From the IMG/VR virus record IMGVR_UViG_2778261424_000010, positions 1-41,171 of that record: a stretch of 41,171 nucleotides of DNA, one strand, 5' to 3'. This document shows, piece after piece, positions 3,449 to 18,091 of the stretch. The position numbers were made by a program, and so were the translations under genes. Position 1 is the first letter of the stretch, and each line of letters begins with the position of its first letter. Below the pieces are notes generated by a model. The model was not told the origin of the DNA, searched no databases, and saw only the letters and a list, made by a program, of their open reading frames with translations. This DNA is from a virus. Taxonomy: Duplodnaviria > Heunggongvirae > Uroviricota > Caudoviricetes.

Positions 3449-4420
3449 TCAGTAATGAATTTTCGCGCAGGGGATCAGGTCATCTTTCAGAGCGGTAAGC
3501 ACTTCGATAGCCTGCTCGCGGGTTAAGCTGGTTTGGCTGGTGAGCGCGTTAACGATGTTGGTGCCGACCGTCTTGCGGTGCTTAACGTCAGCTTCACGCT
3601 TTGCCTGCTCATCGGCGAGGCGCTTCTCTTCGGCCAGGCGGGCATCTTCGGCCTGTTTGGCCTTCAGGCGCTCGGCTTCAACCGCCGCGGCTTTTTCGCG
3701 TTCCGCCCTGGCTTCCGCTTCCTGCTTCTCGCGATCTGCACGCTGTTCCGCTTCGACGCGCTGGCGCTCCGCCAGTTCAGCGCGGGCTTTCTCTTCGGCT
3801 TCACGGCGCGCTGCGGCTTCAATCTCCGCTTTGTGCTTCGCTTCGGCATCGCGGCGGGCTTGTTCTGCCGCTTCCTGTTTCAGCCGCTCATCACGTTCAC
3901 GCTGAGCCTGTTCCGCCAGACGGCGCTGCTCTTCGCGGTCACGGTCAAAATCCTTGTTCATCAGTAGAGCCATTTCGTGGTCCGCTTCGAACTTGGCAGC
4001 CAGCTCCTGATCGAACCTGATGTTCATCTCCAGCGCTTCGGCGTGCATCGCGTTCATGGCTTCTTCAGCCTTAATGCGTTCCTGCTCGGCTTCCCATTCG
4101 GTGAGTGGGCGGCGGGTCGCATCGCGCAGCTCGTCGCAGGCATCAACGAATCGCTTAATTTCGGCCTCAGCCGGACGCACAGCCTCTTTCAGGCGCTTCA
4201 GGTACTCACGGCCCGGCTTTTCGATTGCCGTCTTGCTGCGGGACACCTGCGCTGCCAGAGAGGCAACACGGTCACGGCCTTTCTTCGTGGACAGGTCCGG
4301 CACTTCGTTTACAGCCTGGCGGATTTGCTCAAGGTACGCGTCAAGGCCGCCCGCTACGTAAAGCACTGGGGCCTGTTCCGGCTTGATTTCGATGACAGTT
4401 AAGTCCGTTACTTCGCTCAT
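3449..4420 (-). CDS. Hypothetical protein with long charged coiled-coil (E/A/R/K-rich) region
   Basis: 323-aa ORF; central region is low-complexity AEEKARAELAERQR-type repeats; opposite strand shows multiple shadow ORFs. Confidence 0.5.
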   Translation of the reverse strand: MSEVTDLTVIEIKPEQAPVLYVAGGLDAYLEQIRQAVNEVPDLSTKKGRDRVASLAAQVSRSKTAIEKPGREYLKRLKEAVRPAEAEIKRFVDACDELRDATRRPLTEWEAEQERIKAEEAMNAMHAEALEMNIRFDQELAAKFEADHEMALLMNKDFDRDREEQRRLAEQAQRERDERLKQEAAEQARRDAEAKHKAEIEAAARREAEEKARAELAERQRVEAEQRADREKQEAEARAEREKAAAVEAERLKAKQAEDARLAEEKRLADEQAKREADVKHRKTVGTNIVNALTSQTSLTREQAIEVLTALKDDLIPCAKIHY

Positions 4421-4490
4421 GGTTTCTCCTGAAATTTGGATGTGCAGATCCCGCCCGCGTAATGCCAGGCCGATCGGTTGAATAGGGTGG

Positions 4491-4688
4491 TTACTGCTGC
4501 GCGATGGATTTCGCCGGGAACTCGCCGTTGCGGATGATGCTTTCTACCGGCCAGCACTCAGCTGACACTTTCTGCTCTGTAGCTGCCAGGCTGCATTCCT
4601 GCTGGCTGTCGTAAACGCCGAGAATGACATCCTGATAATCACCGTTGGTCATTGCCACGGTCAGGACGAGTGCGAATAAAGTTTCCAT
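4491..4688 (-). CDS. Small hypothetical protein (hydrophobic N-terminus)
   Basis: ATG at 4688 overlapping stop of upstream small ORF (TGATG); N-terminal METLFALVLTVAM hydrophobic stretch. Confidence 0.35.
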   Translation of the reverse strand: METLFALVLTVAMTNGDYQDVILGVYDSQQECSLAATEQKVSAECWPVESIIRNGEFPAKSIAQQ

Positions 4689-4816
4689 CAGTGAAGAGTC
4701 CTCCCGATGGCGACGGCGTAAAGGCGTTTTGCTTCTTCCCACGCCGGAGCATTGCGATGGAGCACCGCGAACGACGCGAGCCGTTGGGCCTCTCTGATCT
4801 GCTGCTGGTTTACCAT
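4688..4816 (-). CDS. Small ORF (42 aa), hypothetical
   Basis: Hand-translated MVNQQQIREAQRLASFAVLHRNAPAWEEAKRLYAVAIGRTLH; below ORF-track size cut-off; coupled to next ORF. Confidence 0.25.
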   Translation of the reverse strand: MVNQQQIREAQRLASFAVLHRNAPAWEEAKRLYAVAIGRTLH

Positions 4817-4956
4817 GATTTCCTCTTGGCCTTATCGCGGCGAACGGAACGGTTAATACAAGACTTCAACGCATTTATTCAGTGTTTCAATGGGCGGTGG
4901 ATGGCCGCCGGTTGTCATAAATGGGCAGACTCGAAAATCTGCCTATGTATGGCCGA

Positions 4957-4977
4957 TAAAAAACCCGCCGGAGCGGG
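4957..4977 (-). terminator. Rho-independent terminator downstream of orphan 222-aa gene
   Basis: Minus-strand hairpin CCCGCTCCGGCGGG followed by U-tract (plus strand AAAAAACCCGCCGGAGCGGG). Confidence 0.55.
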
Positions 4978-5646
4978 TCATTCATTCTTTGGTATGCCGC
5001 AAAGGGCGTTTAGCGTTTCAACGGGAATGGCAAGTGCGGTGCTGGTCGCTTCACGGCGTTCCACCTCAGGCAAATATGGCACTGCCTCAGGCCACATCTC
5101 AGCCAGTTTTTTAACAGTTGAGACTTTGGTTAGAGCACCTTTAACCTGCAATTGGAAGGCATCAACTTCATCGTAAAGAACGTTGATGGTTACCGTCGAT
5201 TCAGTGAGTCGGTCGTGTAATTTTCCAACTTTCTTCAGCGTGCTGTAACTTTCAGGAACGAAACCCGAATCAATTACAGGCGCGAAGGAAGCTCCGAAGA
5301 ACAGGTCGCTTTCAAGATCGTGCTTACCAATATGTTTTCCACGGTGGCGATAGCGATGATCCAAACCGTTCCTGGCTAATTCGTGATACTCACCATTAAT
5401 AATGACCTTTAAAATTGCAGTTTTAGCGCCGACCTTCATCTTGATGAAGGAGTTATCTTTGAAATCTTCCCGAGCCTTAGTTATTTGCTCATCGCTAGTG
5501 TTTTCCTGCTTGAGCAATGCCTGTCGAATTTCTTCAACAATTTTCGCCCTCTCATTAACCGCAGCTTTCGCTTTCTCAAACAATGGGGATGCGAGAAGCA
5601 GGTTATGGCATAGCTGATTTTTAATTTCGTTGTTAAGACGAATCAT
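4978..5646 (-). CDS. Orphan 222-aa protein of unknown function in immunity-region accessory slot (candidate exclusion/defence gene)
   Basis: First ORF leftward of OL-like operators; SD GAGGGT upstream of ATG; followed by terminator; soluble, not Arg-rich; R-x4-H spacing (RNGLDH) present. Confidence 0.6.
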   Translation of the reverse strand: MIRLNNEIKNQLCHNLLLASPLFEKAKAAVNERAKIVEEIRQALLKQENTSDEQITKAREDFKDNSFIKMKVGAKTAILKVIINGEYHELARNGLDHRYRHRGKHIGKHDLESDLFFGASFAPVIDSGFVPESYSTLKKVGKLHDRLTESTVTINVLYDEVDAFQLQVKGALTKVSTVKKLAEMWPEAVPYLPEVERREATSTALAIPVETLNALCGIPKNE

Positions 5647-12323: not shown

Positions 12324-12761
12324 CTAAGATGGTCTGTATGTAACAACCACCCCTAACTTACTGCCTACCGCATTGAGAGAATTAGAAATAGTTGTATAGG
12401 TTTCTTTGGGGGTGGTGTTTCTTCCTTCTTCTAAAATAGACGCAATAAGATTCAGATTCCACGAGGCCTTAAGGACATCTTTGTATCGAGGAAGGAGACG
12501 TAAAGTAGCCAACATTCCATACAAGGGTATGGCATTAGATTTTGACAACAGCAAAGCTGACGCCTGTTTGATTTCGTTTATTACTTCGCTTTTCGCATTG
12601 ATGCTAAGGATTTTATTTTGCTCACGCAGGAGAATGGCCGAAACCATCCCCAAATGTTCCTTGAATGAAATGTAAGGATCAAGCATGGATTTTACAAATA
12701 TCTGACCCAACACAAACACTGAAACACCAGTAATGACGGTAGTAAACACCCCATTATTCAT
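12324..12761 (-). CDS. Antisense cargo gene: N-terminally membrane-anchored 145-aa protein, unknown function
   Basis: AT-rich ORF on opposite strand to flanking nin genes; N-terminal TM VFTTVITGVSVFVLGQIFV. Confidence 0.5.
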   Translation of the reverse strand: MNNGVFTTVITGVSVFVLGQIFVKSMLDPYISFKEHLGMVSAILLREQNKILSINAKSEVINEIKQASALLLSKSNAIPLYGMLATLRLLPRYKDVLKASWNLNLIASILEEGRNTTPKETYTTISNSLNAVGSKLGVVVTYRPS

Positions 12762-13737: not shown

Positions 13738-14020
13738 TTTATGCAAAGCGGCACGCGGCCGCGATTGTCAGGTGCGGATCCCCGGCGTATGCAACGGCAA
13801 TCCTGAAACCTCAGTACTGGCTCACATACGTCTTGCTGGTCTATGCGGGACCGGAATCAAGCCGCCTGACCTGATCGCCACCATCGCATGCAGCAGTTGC
13901 CACGACGAGATTGATCGCCGCACCCGTCTGGTCGATGCGGAATTTGCAAAGGAGTGCGCGCTGGAAGGCATGGCTCGCACGCAGGTCATCTGGCTTAAAG
14001 AGGGGCTCGTGAAAGCATGA
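13730..14020 (+). CDS. YbcO-like (DUF1364) putative metal-dependent nuclease
   Basis: 96-aa Cys-rich ORF ([11 protein letters not shown]..., [11 protein letters not shown]) upstream of rusA. Confidence 0.5.
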
Positions 14021-14379
14021 ATGAATACCGCATTAGCCTCCCGTGGCCGCCGAGCAACAACCGCTACTACCGGCATAACCGCGGGCGCACGCACATCAGC
14101 ACAGAGGGGCAGGCGTACCGCGACAGTGTCGCCAGAATCATCAAAGACTCAATGCTGGATATCGGCCTGGCTACACCCGTGAAAATCCGCATTGAGTGCC
14201 ACATGCCGGATCGCCGTCGCCGTGACCTGGATAATCTGCAAAAGGCCGCTTTTGACGCACTCACCAAAGCAGGTTTCTGGCTGGACGATGCTCAGGTCGT
14301 TGATTATCGCGTTGTGAAGATGCCCGTTACCAAAGGTGGAAAGCTGGAACTGACAATCACCGGGCTGGAGGCCGTATGA
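14017..14379 (+). CDS. rusA: RusA Holliday-junction resolvase
   Basis: 120-aa ORF; [11 protein letters not shown]... and [13 protein letters not shown] motifs typical of RusA. Confidence 0.85.
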
Positions 14380-14512: not shown

Positions 14513-15295
14513 ATGAACCTTGAAAACACAGTGAAATACCACTTCGCTAAATCCACACTGATTAGCGATTCTCCGCGCGCTACCGCCTCCGATTCACTGA
14601 CCGGTACCGACATAATGGCTGCCATGGGCATGACGCAGGAACGCGCCGCAATGGGTTACAGCGCCTTCCTCGGCAAGATGGGCATAAGCAATAACGACCG
14701 GGATCGGGCGATCGGTCTGCTGGCTGAGTACGCGATGACAAAATGCGACAAGGTTGCCGCACTGCGTAAGCTCGGTGCCGCGGTTAAACCTCAGGTGATG
14801 CACCAGTTGGCCACCTTCGCTTTTGAGGACTATTCCCGCAGCGCTGCCAGCGTGAAGCAGTGCGATTGTTGTGACGGTCAGGGCTTCATTGAGGCTGACG
14901 TGTTTACCAATAAATTCCGTAAGCCAGAAGGGAGAATGACCGTGTCCGGGATGGTGAAGGTCAAAGAATCCATCAAAGTGCTATGCAAAAAGTGTAATGG
15001 CTCTGGTGTGGTTAGTGCTTCTTGCAGTGATTGCCATGGGCGCGGCAAGGCAGTGAACCAGGCTCTTACTGAGAAACAGGGCGTTCCTGTTCTGGCTGAC
15101 TGTAAGCGCTGCGGAGGGCGTGGGTATGAACGACTTCCGTCGACTGAAGCCTATGCTGCTGTATGCCAGATTACTGACGCCATTAGCCTGGACACCTGGA
15201 AAAAGTCTGTTAAGCCATTCTACGACCTGCTGATCACGAAATTTGATATCGAAGAGTCCTGGGCCGAAAAACAGCTTAAGCAGATAACGCGGTAA
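14513..15295 (+). CDS. Putative late-gene antiterminator (Q-like) with four CxxCxGxG zinc-finger repeats
   Basis: Position between rusA and lysis cassette; followed by terminator; CDCCDGQG, CKKCNGSG, CSDCHGRG, CKRCGGRG repeats. Confidence 0.5.
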   Translation: MNLENTVKYHFAKSTLISDSPRATASDSLTGTDIMAAMGMTQERAAMGYSAFLGKMGISNNDRDRAIGLLAEYAMTKCDKVAALRKLGAAVKPQVMHQLATFAFEDYSRSAASVKQCDCCDGQGFIEADVFTNKFRKPEGRMTVSGMVKVKESIKVLCKKCNGSGVVSASCSDCHGRGKAVNQALTEKQGVPVLADCKRCGGRGYERLPSTEAYAAVCQITDAISLDTWKKSVKPFYDLLITKFDIEESWAEKQLKQITR

Positions 15296-15394
15296 CGCCT
15301 ATAGCGATAGCCTATGATTTTGTCTTGGGCTATTTACTTTTCCCGAATCTGTGTTAATTTTGTCCCAACGATGGGTTAATGCCTTCGTTTCAAG

Positions 15395-15422
15395 CCCTGC
15401 GGATAACACCGTGGGGTTTTTT
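15395..15422 (+). terminator. Rho-independent terminator (tR'-like) downstream of Q-like gene
   Basis: CCCUGCGG-AUAACA-CCGUGGGG hairpin followed by UUUUUU. Confidence 0.55.
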
Positions 15423-15499
15423 GCGTTTCTGGAGACAGCAATACCAAGGTTCGAGACATTCAGGTAAAATTGATGCATTACAGGATGTGAGGTTGGGGA

Positions 15500-16069
15500 A
15501 TGAATAATCTACCCGATGATTACTTTTTGGATGCGGACGACGAACTCGTTGCTTTTCTGGAGAAGCAGGGCGAGGATTGTATACGCGAAATTCACCAGTC
15601 CAACGCACTAAACAAAGAAAATGGCCAGAAGTTATTGAGTATACTCATTGCTGGCGTGGGCTCGTCATTTTTGTTATTAACGCAACGTACAGGTTTTGAT
15701 TACCTCACCGCTGGAATGTCTGTTTTTTTAGTCTACTGGGCAATGTGTGCGGCTTATCTTGTTCGCTGCGTCCTCGTTGTAAGGTCACGAGCTCTCGTGT
15801 CATCGACACCCTATGCGCTTTACCATGATGGCTATAAAGGGTTTACTGAAGATGATTACACTGGTTTTGAGTCGAAAGGATTTTCAGGAAAGCGTTCAAC
15901 ATTGAACGTCTTGCGGCGCTACCGGCTTGCGGATTTAACCAGAATGGCTGAAATGAGTAAAAAAGAGAATGCCAGAATAGGCCGAGAACTAGAAAGGGTA
16001 AGGATCGCTACAATCCTCACCCCTGTTTGTGCACTTGTAATCTCAGTACTTACTTACCTTTTTTTCTGA
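15500..16069 (+). CDS. Cargo gene in Q-to-lysis slot: 189-aa predicted three-TM membrane protein
   Basis: Lies between late terminator and holin; hydrophobic segments at about aa 45-60, 73-94 and C-terminus. Confidence 0.5.
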   Translation: MNNLPDDYFLDADDELVAFLEKQGEDCIREIHQSNALNKENGQKLLSILIAGVGSSFLLLTQRTGFDYLTAGMSVFLVYWAMCAAYLVRCVLVVRSRALVSSTPYALYHDGYKGFTEDDYTGFESKGFSGKRSTLNVLRRYRLADLTRMAEMSKKENARIGRELERVRIATILTPVCALVISVLTYLFF

Positions 16070-16199
16070 TGTTTTCAGCAGAATCGGCAACAAAGGTATA
16101 ACCTGTCCTCAGATTTCTTTCGGCTGGCTGTGGAGCCGGTTTAGGCTGTGGTGCGGGTTGAGGCTTATTTTCTCCAGATGGTTTGTTTGATTCACTCAT
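16050..16199 (-). CDS. Small Pro-rich antisense ORF (49 aa), hypothetical
   Basis: Hand-translated MSESNKPSGENKPQPAPQPKPAPQPAERNL...; GGAGA SD 6 nt upstream of ATG. Confidence 0.25.
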   Translation of the reverse strand: MSESNKPSGENKPQPAPQPKPAPQPAERNLRTGYTFVADSAENIRKKGK

Positions 16200-16292
16200 A
16201 TAATTCTCCATGTTTGATAGGGTTATTTTTGGCGATTTAACGATATCAAATACAGTGATTTGCTGCTAGAGCATGCACTTATCTATAACTCG

Positions 16293-16320
16293 CCCCGGCA
16301 CCCGCTGGGGCTTTTTTATT
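16293..16320 (+). terminator. Rho-independent terminator upstream of holin
   Basis: CCCCGGC-ACCC-GCTGGGG hairpin followed by CTTTTTTATTT. Confidence 0.45.
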
Positions 16321-16433
16321 TCCGGCTCACGGTAATCATCCGCTACGTGCTTTGTTGATAAATCCAACCCGTGAAGCCTGAGCCTATTTCCCCTCATACC
16401 TGAGAGGACTCACAGCAATTAAGAGGGGGCTAA

Positions 16434-16820
16434 ATGTCCGATCCAATTTCCGGTACTGGGCTGGCTGGTGGTGCCCTGACGGGTGCCAGTGTTTATGGAC
16501 TGCTGACCGGAACTGATTACGGCGTTGTATTTGGCGCATTTGCAGGGGCTGTATTCTACATAGCAACAGCAGCGGATCTGAGCGCATCGCGCCGACTGGC
16601 ATATTTTATCGTGTCGTATATTGCCGGGATCCTTTGCTCTGGGTTGGTTGGCTCCAAGCTGGCAAGCTTGACCGGATACAGTGATAAACCTCTGGATGCC
16701 ATTGGTGCCGTAATCGTATCTGCTTTAGCCGTTAAGATCCTGACGTTCCTGAATAATCAGGATATCGGGTCGCTGGTGGCGCTCATAACGCGCCGGGGAG
16801 GTTCAGGTGGAGCTAAATGA
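16434..16820 (+). CDS. Holin
   Basis: 128-aa Gly/Ala-rich multi-TM protein at head of lysis cassette. Confidence 0.65.
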   Translation: MSDPISGTGLAGGALTGASVYGLLTGTDYGVVFGAFAGAVFYIATAADLSASRRLAYFIVSYIAGILCSGLVGSKLASLTGYSDKPLDAIGAVIVSALAVKILTFLNNQDIGSLVALITRRGGSGGAK

Positions 16821-17088
16821 CCCGACAGCAACTATAAACGCGCTGTTATGTGCTTGTGTTGTTATTACTCTGATGTTTTATCGTCGTGGTGATTCGCGGC
16901 ATCGTCCTTGGGTTTCACGTTTAGCCTGGCTGATTACTGTTACATACAGTGCTGTTCCGTTGGCCTATCTCTGTGGGATTTATCCCCATTCCTCATGGCC
17001 CATTATCGTGGCGAATACTATTTTTCTTTCCGTGCTGGTGGCCGTCAGAGGCAACGTTGCACGCCTGGTTGATCATCTGAGGCACTAA
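16807..17088 (+). CDS. Holin-like / lysis-associated membrane protein
   Basis: 93-aa hydrophobic ORF between holin and endolysin. Confidence 0.5.
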   Translation: MELNDPTATINALLCACVVITLMFYRRGDSRHRPWVSRLAWLITVTYSAVPLAYLCGIYPHSSWPIIVANTIFLSVLVAVRGNVARLVDHLRH

Positions 17089-17702
17089 TGAACCAACAAT
17101 TATTTCAAAAGGCGGCTGGTATCAGCGCCGGACTGGCTGTGCGCTGGTTTCAACCAGTAGATGCAGCGATGAAAGAATTCGGCATTACAGCACCCGCGGA
17201 TCAGGCCATGTTCATCGCTCAGGTAGGTCATGAGTCAGGCGGCTTTAGCGCTGTAGTTGAAAATTTGAACTACACACCATCTGCGCTGGTGGCGACCTTC
17301 GGAAAGAGGATCACACAGCAGCAGGCTGATGCGCTTGGCAGAACAACCGAACACGCAGCCCGCCAGGATGCTATCGCCAATCTGGTGTATAGCAACCGCC
17401 TGGGTAACAAAGCGCCCGGCGACGGCTGGAAATATCGCGGCAGAGGGTTAATTCAAATCACTGGCCTCGACAATTATCGCACCTGCGGGGCTGCTCTGAA
17501 GTTAGATTTGGTGACTTCACCTGAACAACTGGAACAGGAACTACAGGCTGCGCGCTCAGCTGCATGGTTCTACACCTCTAAAGGCTGCATGATCTACGGT
17601 GCCGATATTAATCGTGTTACTCGCATCATTAACGGCGGTCTGAACGGTATTGAGGATCGTAAGGTCCGATACAACAAGGCGCGGGCGGCGCTGCTGGTAT
17701 GA
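17088..17702 (+). CDS. Endolysin (GH19 chitinase-like lysozyme)
   Basis: FIAQVGHESGGF and GRGLIQITG motifs typical of GH19 phage endolysins. Confidence 0.8.
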   Translation: MNQQLFQKAAGISAGLAVRWFQPVDAAMKEFGITAPADQAMFIAQVGHESGGFSAVVENLNYTPSALVATFGKRITQQQADALGRTTEHAARQDAIANLVYSNRLGNKAPGDGWKYRGRGLIQITGLDNYRTCGAALKLDLVTSPEQLEQELQAARSAAWFYTSKGCMIYGADINRVTRIINGGLNGIEDRKVRYNKARAALLV

Positions 17703-18091
17703 AGATGAGTTATTGGGCGCTCATTTTAACGTTTATTGCTTGTATTGCTGGTGGTCTTGTCTGGTCAGCGAATCATTACCATGGAAAGTTTCTGGAGGAA
17801 CAGCGGCGCGCTGACGATGCAGAACAGCGCGCTGATTCCTTTGAGACCATCACCGCGAATGTCCTGCGCACCGTAGCAATAACGAACATCATTCTGGAGA
17901 CAAATCAATATGCCAGGCAGCAGATCGCACTGGAGTCACAGAGAACCGAGAACGATATCAAGGCTGCTGTTGCGGATGATGATTGTGCTGTTCGTGTTGT
18001 GCCTGCTGGCGCAGTTAAGCGGCTGCACGAATACGCGAACGGTCTTCGTGCCGGTTCCGGTAGTTCCGTTACCAGCCAGCCTGACGGCTGA
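17699..18091 (+). CDS. Rz-like i-spanin
   Basis: N-terminal TM (YWALILTFIACIAGGLVW) then coiled-coil; follows endolysin. Confidence 0.7.
   Translation: MKMSYWALILTFIACIAGGLVWSANHYHGKFLEEQRRADDAEQRADSFETITANVLRTVAITNIILETNQYARQQIALESQRTENDIKAAVADDDCAVRVVPAGAVKRLHEYANGLRAGSGSSVTSQPDG

Follow-up and report, generated by a model that had tools for sequence, protein, structure and literature searches.

What does the lambdoid prophage IMGVR_UViG_2778261424_000010 carry between its antiterminator gene Q and its lysis genes, and what might this cargo do? In the 41,171 nucleotides (nt) of DNA analysed here (positions 1 to 41,171 of the IMG/VR record; hereafter the window), a sequence-only reading had noticed a gene for a membrane protein of 189 amino acids (aa) in this slot and had likened its location to that of the stx toxin genes. 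The elements named in that reading, i.e., Q, two terminators, the 189-aa open reading frame (ORF) and the holin gene, were all recovered, with coordinates agreeing exactly or to within 3 nt: the first terminator, read as 15395–15422, corresponded to a stem at 15392–15419 plus T-run, and the second, read as 16293–16320, to a stem at 16292–16311 plus T-run. Q, the 189-aa ORF and the lysis genes are located on the plus strand, and the cargo lies downstream of pR′–tR′, in the Q-to-S slot that represents the stx position in Stx phages (PMC6266700). Three elements had been overlooked, namely a convergent 49-aa gene, a lambda-like late promoter pR′ and a conserved −10-like TAAAAT. The cargo thus consists of two genes rather than one, which we refer to as the large gene and the small gene (Table 1). 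Together they form a cassette that is most likely a kind of prophage defence or toxin module.

The small gene (peptide MSESNKPSGENKPQPAPQPKPAPQPAERNLRTGYTFVADSAENIRKKGK) is read from the opposite strand towards the large gene, whose last 20 nt it overlaps. A GGAG motif is located 7 nt before its ATG, and a further in-frame ATG lies upstream at 16211. The Prokaryotic Genome Annotation Pipeline (PGAP) annotates the gene in E. coli AR_0119 as WP_162842358.1. It is called by PGAP, in the pPE4 GenBank record and in some assembly gene calls, but skipped by others, and always appears as a bare hypothetical. The small gene was intact (47–53 aa) in all nine loci that carried a full-length large gene, and its insertions and deletions were multiples of three. 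Across these nine loci, the proportion of nonsynonymous differences (pN) was lower than that of synonymous differences (pS) in 36 of 36 pairs, with means of 0.31 and 0.66; judged by this measure, the small gene is under purifying selection. Sixteen of 18 diverse loci also have a proline/lysine-rich convergent ORF that overlaps the 3′ end; among them are relatives of the large gene with only 22–30% identity, found in unrelated prophages and in a Thiodiazotropha genome (e.g., MSQPNQPVIPQPAPERRE..., MSNKKEKSPPPPPPPPPQK..., MSNQKSSQSKSPKSTKPAAP...). In a viral set of 80 IMG/VR loci, representing 59 distinct large-gene DNA sequences, a composition rule recognised the small ORF in 76. A local tblastn search with the small peptide, run without low-complexity filter, on its own retrieved it in 70; six of the ten missed loci were inspected by eye and all six carry the small ORF. 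From the conservation in the nine loci, in 16 of the 18 and in 76 of the 80, we therefore concluded that the large and the small gene form an obligate unit.

Charge complementarity between the acidic N-terminus of the large protein and the basic peptide was not significant across the 18 loci (rho −0.27, p 0.27). Sixteen loci besides L037 combine an acidic N-terminus with a basic peptide; at L037 (116–792) the charges appear swapped, with a net charge of +2 for the N-terminus of the large protein and of −13 for the convergent ORF, which is a single case. The micro-peptides of two distant relatives, at L027 (532–660, minus strand) and L031 (2096–2236, minus strand), contain runs of nine and five consecutive prolines, respectively. 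Since proline runs normally need EF-P for translation, the micro-ORF possibly senses translation status.

Hydropathy analysis of the large protein revealed hydrophobic segments at residues 44–62, 69–93 and 169–189. The 43 N-terminal residues carry a net charge of −8, while residues 94–168 carry a net charge of +6 with 16 Lys/Arg. According to the positive-inside rule, the protein is therefore expected to adopt an N-in, C-out orientation with a short periplasmic loop (63–68) and a cytoplasmic section (94–168), in agreement with the earlier description of a protein with three transmembrane (TM) segments and an acidic cytoplasmic N-terminus. An AlphaFold2 (AF2) model based on a 40-sequence alignment showed a predicted local distance difference test (pLDDT) score of 83 and three long helices (14–62, 68–92 and 134–188), in which helical cytoplasmic extensions continue directly into TM1 and TM3. 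Residues 1–43 and 94–168 are thus predicted to build a helical cytoplasmic domain. Conservation of the ORF extends over 115 protein clusters (90% identity), and 80 of 80 viral-contig copies are intact. Among 11 loci that contain a large-gene homologue, taken from three phage records and eight reference-genome loci, three have disrupted copies, which are truncated, ORF-interrupted or frameshifted (L009, L010 and L011, from 4001 onward).

The large protein had been described as matching nothing recognisable. Indeed, no direct match was obtained in Pfam, NCBIfam, PADLOC or PDB sequences, and the only hit was phrog_11870, a family of unknown function. At the level of remote homology this description proved wrong. 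When 1.8 billion representatives were searched with a profile of close homologues, 102 clusters of 155–200-aa proteins were retrieved, and 73 aligned relatives formed one BLAST-connected family. Five of the 73 matched a PADLOC model of PycTM (best E value 1.5e-8, PDLC02364), two matched a second PADLOC PycTM model, and one matched the ‘2TM effector’ model of the cyclic-oligonucleotide-based antiphage signalling system (CBASS; 4e-5). The PADLOC alignments that we inspected were co-linear and near full-length, covering profile positions 7–116 of 160 for relative P0204 (5.5e-4) and 10–151 of 160 for P0191. By elimination, the match at 1.5e-8 falls in the 46-member subgroup that includes the window protein, and it probably belongs to relative P0139 (L029, 5001–5567), for which a precomputed Pfam match to PF18967 (PycTM) is stored and listed as strong. 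The window protein and P0139 share 30% identity over 174 aa (BLASTP E 9e-20; hhalign probability 99.4), and the A1 profile matched P0139 at 7e-22. According to a 2026 preprint, PycTM and PucTM belong to the ‘pJV1-spdB3 family’, have three TM segments and contain a helical region in the cytosol, and EcPucTM assembles into a hexamer with a channel of ~15 Å lined by TM2 helices (bioRxiv 10.64898/2026.08.12.744502). Three TM segments and a helical cytosolic region are also predicted for the large protein by hydropathy and the AF2 model. On the strength of these sequence comparisons, the large protein is probably a remote relative in the same superfamily as PycTM, the membrane-damaging three-TM effectors of the Pycsar/Pucsar abortive-infection systems. 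Fold searches were uninformative, and using the distant subgroup in a third search for homologues yielded nothing useful. Membership in the SLATT group was considered and dropped, as only two NCBIfam SLATT_1 matches at 0.029 were found among the 73 relatives.

The cassette resembles PycTM/PucTM in protein size (155–200 aa), in the three TM segments with a helical cytosolic region, in kinship via intermediates and in carriage by mobile elements. In Pycsar/Pucsar, an adjacent cyclase (PycC/PucC) provides the activating signal. Here, by contrast, the stored Pfam matches for the 10 kb on either side of the identical gene, surveyed in three genomes, contained no cyclase families, nor did a cyclase occur in any distant-relative context examined; this survey used precomputed Pfam matches, and the outer parts of the window lay outside the Pfam scan. 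The described systems lack the convergent micro-ORF that every cassette member checked possesses, the window protein reaches no PycTM model directly, and a nucleotide ligand would be hypothetical. The cassette is best viewed as a new two-gene arrangement in which a PycTM-like effector is paired with a conserved micro-ORF and lacks a cyclase. No description of the cassette was found in the searchable literature.

The genomic positions of the relatives provided further information. Outside the Enterobacterales clade, distant relatives were never found with lysis genes. Four of them (L026, L027, L029 and L035) directly follow cI or an S24 repressor gene, i.e., the rex position in lambda, and in L026 the micro-gene begins 15 nt past cI on the same strand. 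Other relatives adjoin an integrase (L016) or a Phd/ParE pair (L018), or lie antisense within the early-left region (L013). By analogy, these distant positions are those of lysogen-expressed accessory genes and not of lysis genes. In the close clade, the types of Q and of the lysis genes vary among cassette-bearing loci. The relative at L035 is located within a prophage immunity region (4174–5546), two genes downstream of a gene with a Pfam match to the Acb2/Tad1-hairpin (cyclic-nucleotide sponge) family; L035 is possibly a mixed defence and anti-defence islet.

The cassette is exchangeable. The window is homologous to phage mEp237 and to the E. coli KL53 prophage across Q, pR′ and tR′; this homology ends at 15434 and restarts at 16307. 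Between these junctions the slot was found empty in the KL53 prophage, filled with a 213-aa ORF (mEp237 gp56 and YPE10) or a 136-aa minus-strand ORF, or, in W619, occupied by a strongly diverged allele of the two-gene cassette. The window's own cassette was detected in 6 of 5426 complete E. coli genomes. Its guanine-plus-cytosine content is 0.43–0.46, compared with 0.52–0.59 in the flanks. As reportedly defined by Juhala and colleagues in 2000, a moron is an additional gene that has a promoter and a terminator of its own and separates two genes that are neighbours in related phages. The cassette displays presence/absence polymorphism at a fixed site (other cargo in mEp237, none in KL53), deviant base composition and its own terminator (z −3.3). 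The interpretation as cargo of this slot was borne out, and the cargo is exchangeable between the same flanks at defined junctions, but it comprises two genes instead of a single one. The alternative slot cargos, located at L001 (3912–4553), L024 (1068–1709) and L025 (770–1180, minus strand), showed no defence-family match, the 213-aa ORF giving only a weak match to a CasR-like PADLOC model (E 0.007).

Two non-coding blocks of the cassette were more conserved than the proteins. The block CATTCAGGTAAAAT was kept in nine of 11 aligned loci, and the motif GGTAA[AG]AT occurred 28–34 nt upstream of the large-gene ATG in 44 of 79 viral loci; a similar sequence, TTCAGGTAAAGT, is present in the distant locus L026. 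With a promoter score of 7.4, between the 99.9th and the 99.99th percentile, and a weak −35, this block is a candidate for a cassette promoter of the large gene. The second block, TGATATCGTTAAATCGCC, was nearly invariant across nine loci, with a conservation above that of coding sequence, and the motif TGnTAT[CT]GT was found in 60 of 80 viral loci. It represents a candidate promoter or leader of the small gene. With both promoters taken as putative, the promoter-like blocks and the terminator constitute a classical moron layout. Sole dependence of expression on Q read-through is unlikely in view of the conserved promoter-like elements within the cassette.

How might such a gene pair work? Our preferred reading, which we hold tentatively and rate a little short of probable, is that the cassette encodes a cyclase-independent PycTM-type membrane effector that is controlled by the convergent micro-gene and acts in abortive infection or exclusion. 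The large protein would oligomerise in the membrane and, once freed from control, permeabilise or depolarise the cell, which would abort or exclude infection of the lysogen by other phages. Control might be exerted by the small-gene transcript, which would pair in antisense with the large mRNA at its 3′ end, and/or by direct action of the basic proline-rich peptide on the N-terminus, which is acidic and predicted to be cytoplasmic. As long as the prophage is lysogenic, tR′ would stop transcripts from pR′, and each gene would be driven by a weak promoter of its own. Once induction has occurred, polymerase modified by Q would cross tR′, the large gene, the small gene in antisense direction and the second terminator to reach the holin genes. 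The large protein would therefore rise, and the small gene be silenced, only when lysis is imminent, and the slot would thus be a safe place for a toxic membrane effector. In a bolder version, which we regard as unlikely, the cassette would represent an undescribed and widespread two-gene class of prophage immunity or toxin systems, with a PycTM-type pore effector that works without cyclic-nucleotide signalling and is gated by a convergently encoded proline-rich micro-protein. Synthesis of the micro-protein would then depend on smooth translation of its proline runs (up to nine residues in one relative), so that an infecting phage that disturbs host transcription or translation would cause the micro-protein to vanish and the pore to be released.

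If the preferred reading is true, the PycTM fold also serves without a cyclase and under another control logic, and does so in many temperate phages, both within and outside Enterobacterales. The prophage-borne defences would gain a defined and easily testable two-gene candidate, and the reading would suggest why toxic cargo gathers in the Q-to-holin slot, where strong expression would occur only near lysis. The micro-gene is a clear case of a small ORF that may be a key regulatory part. The cassette is common, compact and directly testable.

Several observations weigh against this reading. The link to PycTM is transitive, as the window protein itself has no direct match to any PycTM model in Pfam or PADLOC. 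Our own Pfam scan of the 73 relatives yielded PycTM for only one member, at E 0.016, which conflicts with the stored match of P0139; the discrepancy probably reflects a different Pfam version or E-value calculation. The PycTM effectors known so far depend on a cyclic nucleotide signal, for which no source is evident here. The −35 of the putative cassette promoter is poor, and the promoter motif is confined to little more than half of the viral loci. In two distant loci among the 18 diverse ones, the convergent ORFs have a different composition and are not proline-rich. Finally, a late lytic role is conceivable because the cassette adjoins lysis genes in most close-clade loci, a holin or endolysin gene following within 2.5 kb in 67 of 76.

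In such a late lytic role, the large protein would be a membrane protein made from the Q-dependent transcript that modulates lysis, for instance by depolarising the membrane and triggering the holins, as an antiholin, or through a late block of re-adsorption or superinfection, while the micro-gene would keep the large gene off in the lysogen. Holins are triggered by loss of the proton-motive force, and a membrane-perturbing protein could plausibly affect their timing; besides the linkage to lysis genes, late transcription must cross the large gene on its way from pR′–tR′ to the holins. Nevertheless, we consider this explanation quite unlikely. The notion that the gene is simply part of the lysis cassette found no footing because Pfam, PHROGs and NCBIfam gave no homology to holins, antiholins or lysis regulators; no holin, antiholin or spanin family was matched by the large protein or by its 73 relatives, whereas the neighbouring genes did match. 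In siblings with a different holin–lysozyme cassette, the slot is vacant or contains unrelated ORFs; the same lysis cassette also functions when nothing occupies the slot, and the type of lysis genes varies freely among cassette-bearing loci. Outside the clade the linkage to lysis genes is lost, and relatives reside beside cI, an integrase or a toxin–antitoxin pair. The cassette also has its own terminator and promoter-like motifs. Among the functions put forward initially, lysis timing was thereby weakened, while abortive infection or exclusion gained from the remote PycTM homology and the lysogen-type positions. The stx genes offer a parallel for the location, being likewise downstream of pR′–tR′ and upstream of the holin, obligatorily crossed by Q-modified transcription and exchangeable between related phages. 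Yet the cassette product is a membrane protein kept in the cell and not a secreted toxin, and the cassette has promoter-like elements of its own and a putative convergent regulator.

A non-lethal form of superinfection exclusion, in which the protein blocks the entry of incoming DNA like P22 SieA, T4 Imm or HK97 gp15 and the cell survives, would suit a small inner-membrane protein from a prophage moron, and the positions of relatives next to cI and integrase are typical of exclusion genes. We rate it as unlikely as well, because no match to the SieB, Imm or RexB Pfam families was found among the 73 relatives at E up to 0.05, because the sole detectable kinship is to pore-type abortive-infection effectors, and because an obligate convergent partner fits the control of a toxic product better than an accessory of a passive blocker. 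RexA/RexB of lambda likewise represent membrane-based abortive infection from a prophage with two components, one of them a membrane protein, and several distant relatives of the cassette are located immediately downstream of cI as well. RexB, which has four TM segments, is not matched by any of the 73 relatives, and RexA is a large sensor co-transcribed with RexB and not a convergent 49-aa peptide. The cassette might also be a selfish toxin–antitoxin module that stabilises the prophage without any part in defence, the toxin acting at the membrane and the labile antitoxin being a peptide, an antisense RNA or both. Its obligate pairing and the distant relative beside the Phd/ParE pair speak for such a module, and the opposition of a putatively membrane-active product to a convergent transcript overlapping its 3′ end resembles type I systems, which are found in prophages and include the 3′-overlapping pairs txpA/RatA and bsrG/SR4 as well as hok/sok as an example that excludes T4. 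However, type I toxins are hydrophobic peptides of less than ~60 aa with a non-coding antisense antitoxin, while the putative toxin of the cassette is three to four times larger (189 aa; 155–200 aa in the family) with three TM segments, and the opposing transcript encodes a conserved peptide under purifying selection. We consider a purely selfish module very unlikely, although addiction and abortive infection are compatible, so that this explanation overlaps with the preferred one. Least probable, in our view, is an anti-defence decoy, i.e., a phage look-alike of PycTM that binds the cyclic nucleotide or poisons host PycTM by co-assembling with it and so guards late development from Pycsar-type systems. 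Carriage of a host-effector homologue by phages without a cyclase, predicted expression with the late genes and the neighbourhood of a sponge-family gene in L035 would be in line with a decoy. On the other hand, the putative promoter, the terminator and the location of relatives next to cI or an integrase suggest that the cassette is expressed in the lysogen, a harmless decoy would do without an obligate convergent partner, and ligand binding is hypothetical.

Table 1 Features of the Q-to-lysis region of the window
Feature	Position	Strand	Description
RusA	14017–14379	+	Followed by a YlcG-like ORF; upstream of Q
Antiterminator Q	14513–15295	+	Pfam PF03589, E 1.9e-45; phrog_127; lambda-Q family with DnaJ-type zinc-finger region
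pR′-like late promoter (predicted)	15333–15380	+	−35 TTTACT (15333–15338), 16-nt spacer, TGn-extended −10 TAATTT (15355–15360)
tR′-like intrinsic terminator	15392–15425	+	11-bp stem (15392–15419) and T-run; ~25 nt past the predicted pR′ start region
Exchangeable cassette (moron)	15435–16306		Comprises the leader, both genes and most of the cassette terminator
Conserved block CATTCAGGTAAAAT	15457–15470	+	−10-like TAAAAT (15465–15470), 30 nt upstream of the large-gene ATG; candidate promoter
Large gene	15500–16069	+	189 aa; inner-membrane protein with three predicted TM segments; phrog_11870
Small gene	16199–16050	−	49 aa; basic, proline/lysine-rich; phrog_14506
Conserved block TGATATCGTTAAATCGCC	16231–16248	−	TGnTATCGT resembling an extended −10, ahead of the small gene; candidate promoter or leader
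Cassette terminator	16292–16321	+ only	8-bp GC stem (16292–16311) and T6; −17.5 kcal/mol, z −3.3
Holin	16434–16820	+	PF16931
Second holin-family protein	16807–17088	+	Lysis cassette
GH19 endolysin	17088–17702	+	Lysis cassette
Rz-like spanin	17699–18091	+	Lysis cassette

The surroundings of the cassette could be assigned by comparison with lambda. The Q proteins of lambda and the window share 38% identity (tblastn). Alignment with the 44.5 kb region of lambda showed that CAACGATGGGTTAAT, just downstream of the −10 of pR′, is identical at 15 of 15 positions, and the initial transcribed sequence AACGATGGGTTAAT at 15367–15380 matches the early transcribed region of lambda pR′. The pR′-like element also yielded the top plus-strand sigma-70 score within 15296–16440, exceeding the 99.99th percentile of the window, and by inference from lambda it is expected to act as a promoter. 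The near-identity to lambda in pR′ and the first transcribed bases is found despite the low identity of Q, which carries a DnaJ-type zinc-finger segment. The predicted transcript from pR′ to tR′ measures only ~55–60 nt; in lambda it comprises 194 nt.

Folding of 15362–15430 gave −24.4 kcal/mol (z −2.6) for the tR′ region, and tR′ is kept in mEp237 and E. coli KL53. On the minus strand, RNA folding revealed no good hairpin with T-run at tR′, and the fold at the second terminator was not significant and lacked a T-run. The number of terminator-like sites between 13.5 and 18.5 kb was not above chance (seven, compared with 4.9 ± 2.0 in shuffled sequences); tR′ and the cassette terminator were the two top-ranked sites in this interval. 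An Rfam scan of 15200–16500 gave no match. The lysis cassette (16434–18091) matched PF16931, PF05449 and PF00182 as well as phrog_198, 217, 181 and 214. Upstream of the slot, an ORF of 145 aa with a hydrophobic N-terminus (12324–12761, minus strand) is oriented opposite to the surrounding nin-region genes and may be another moron.

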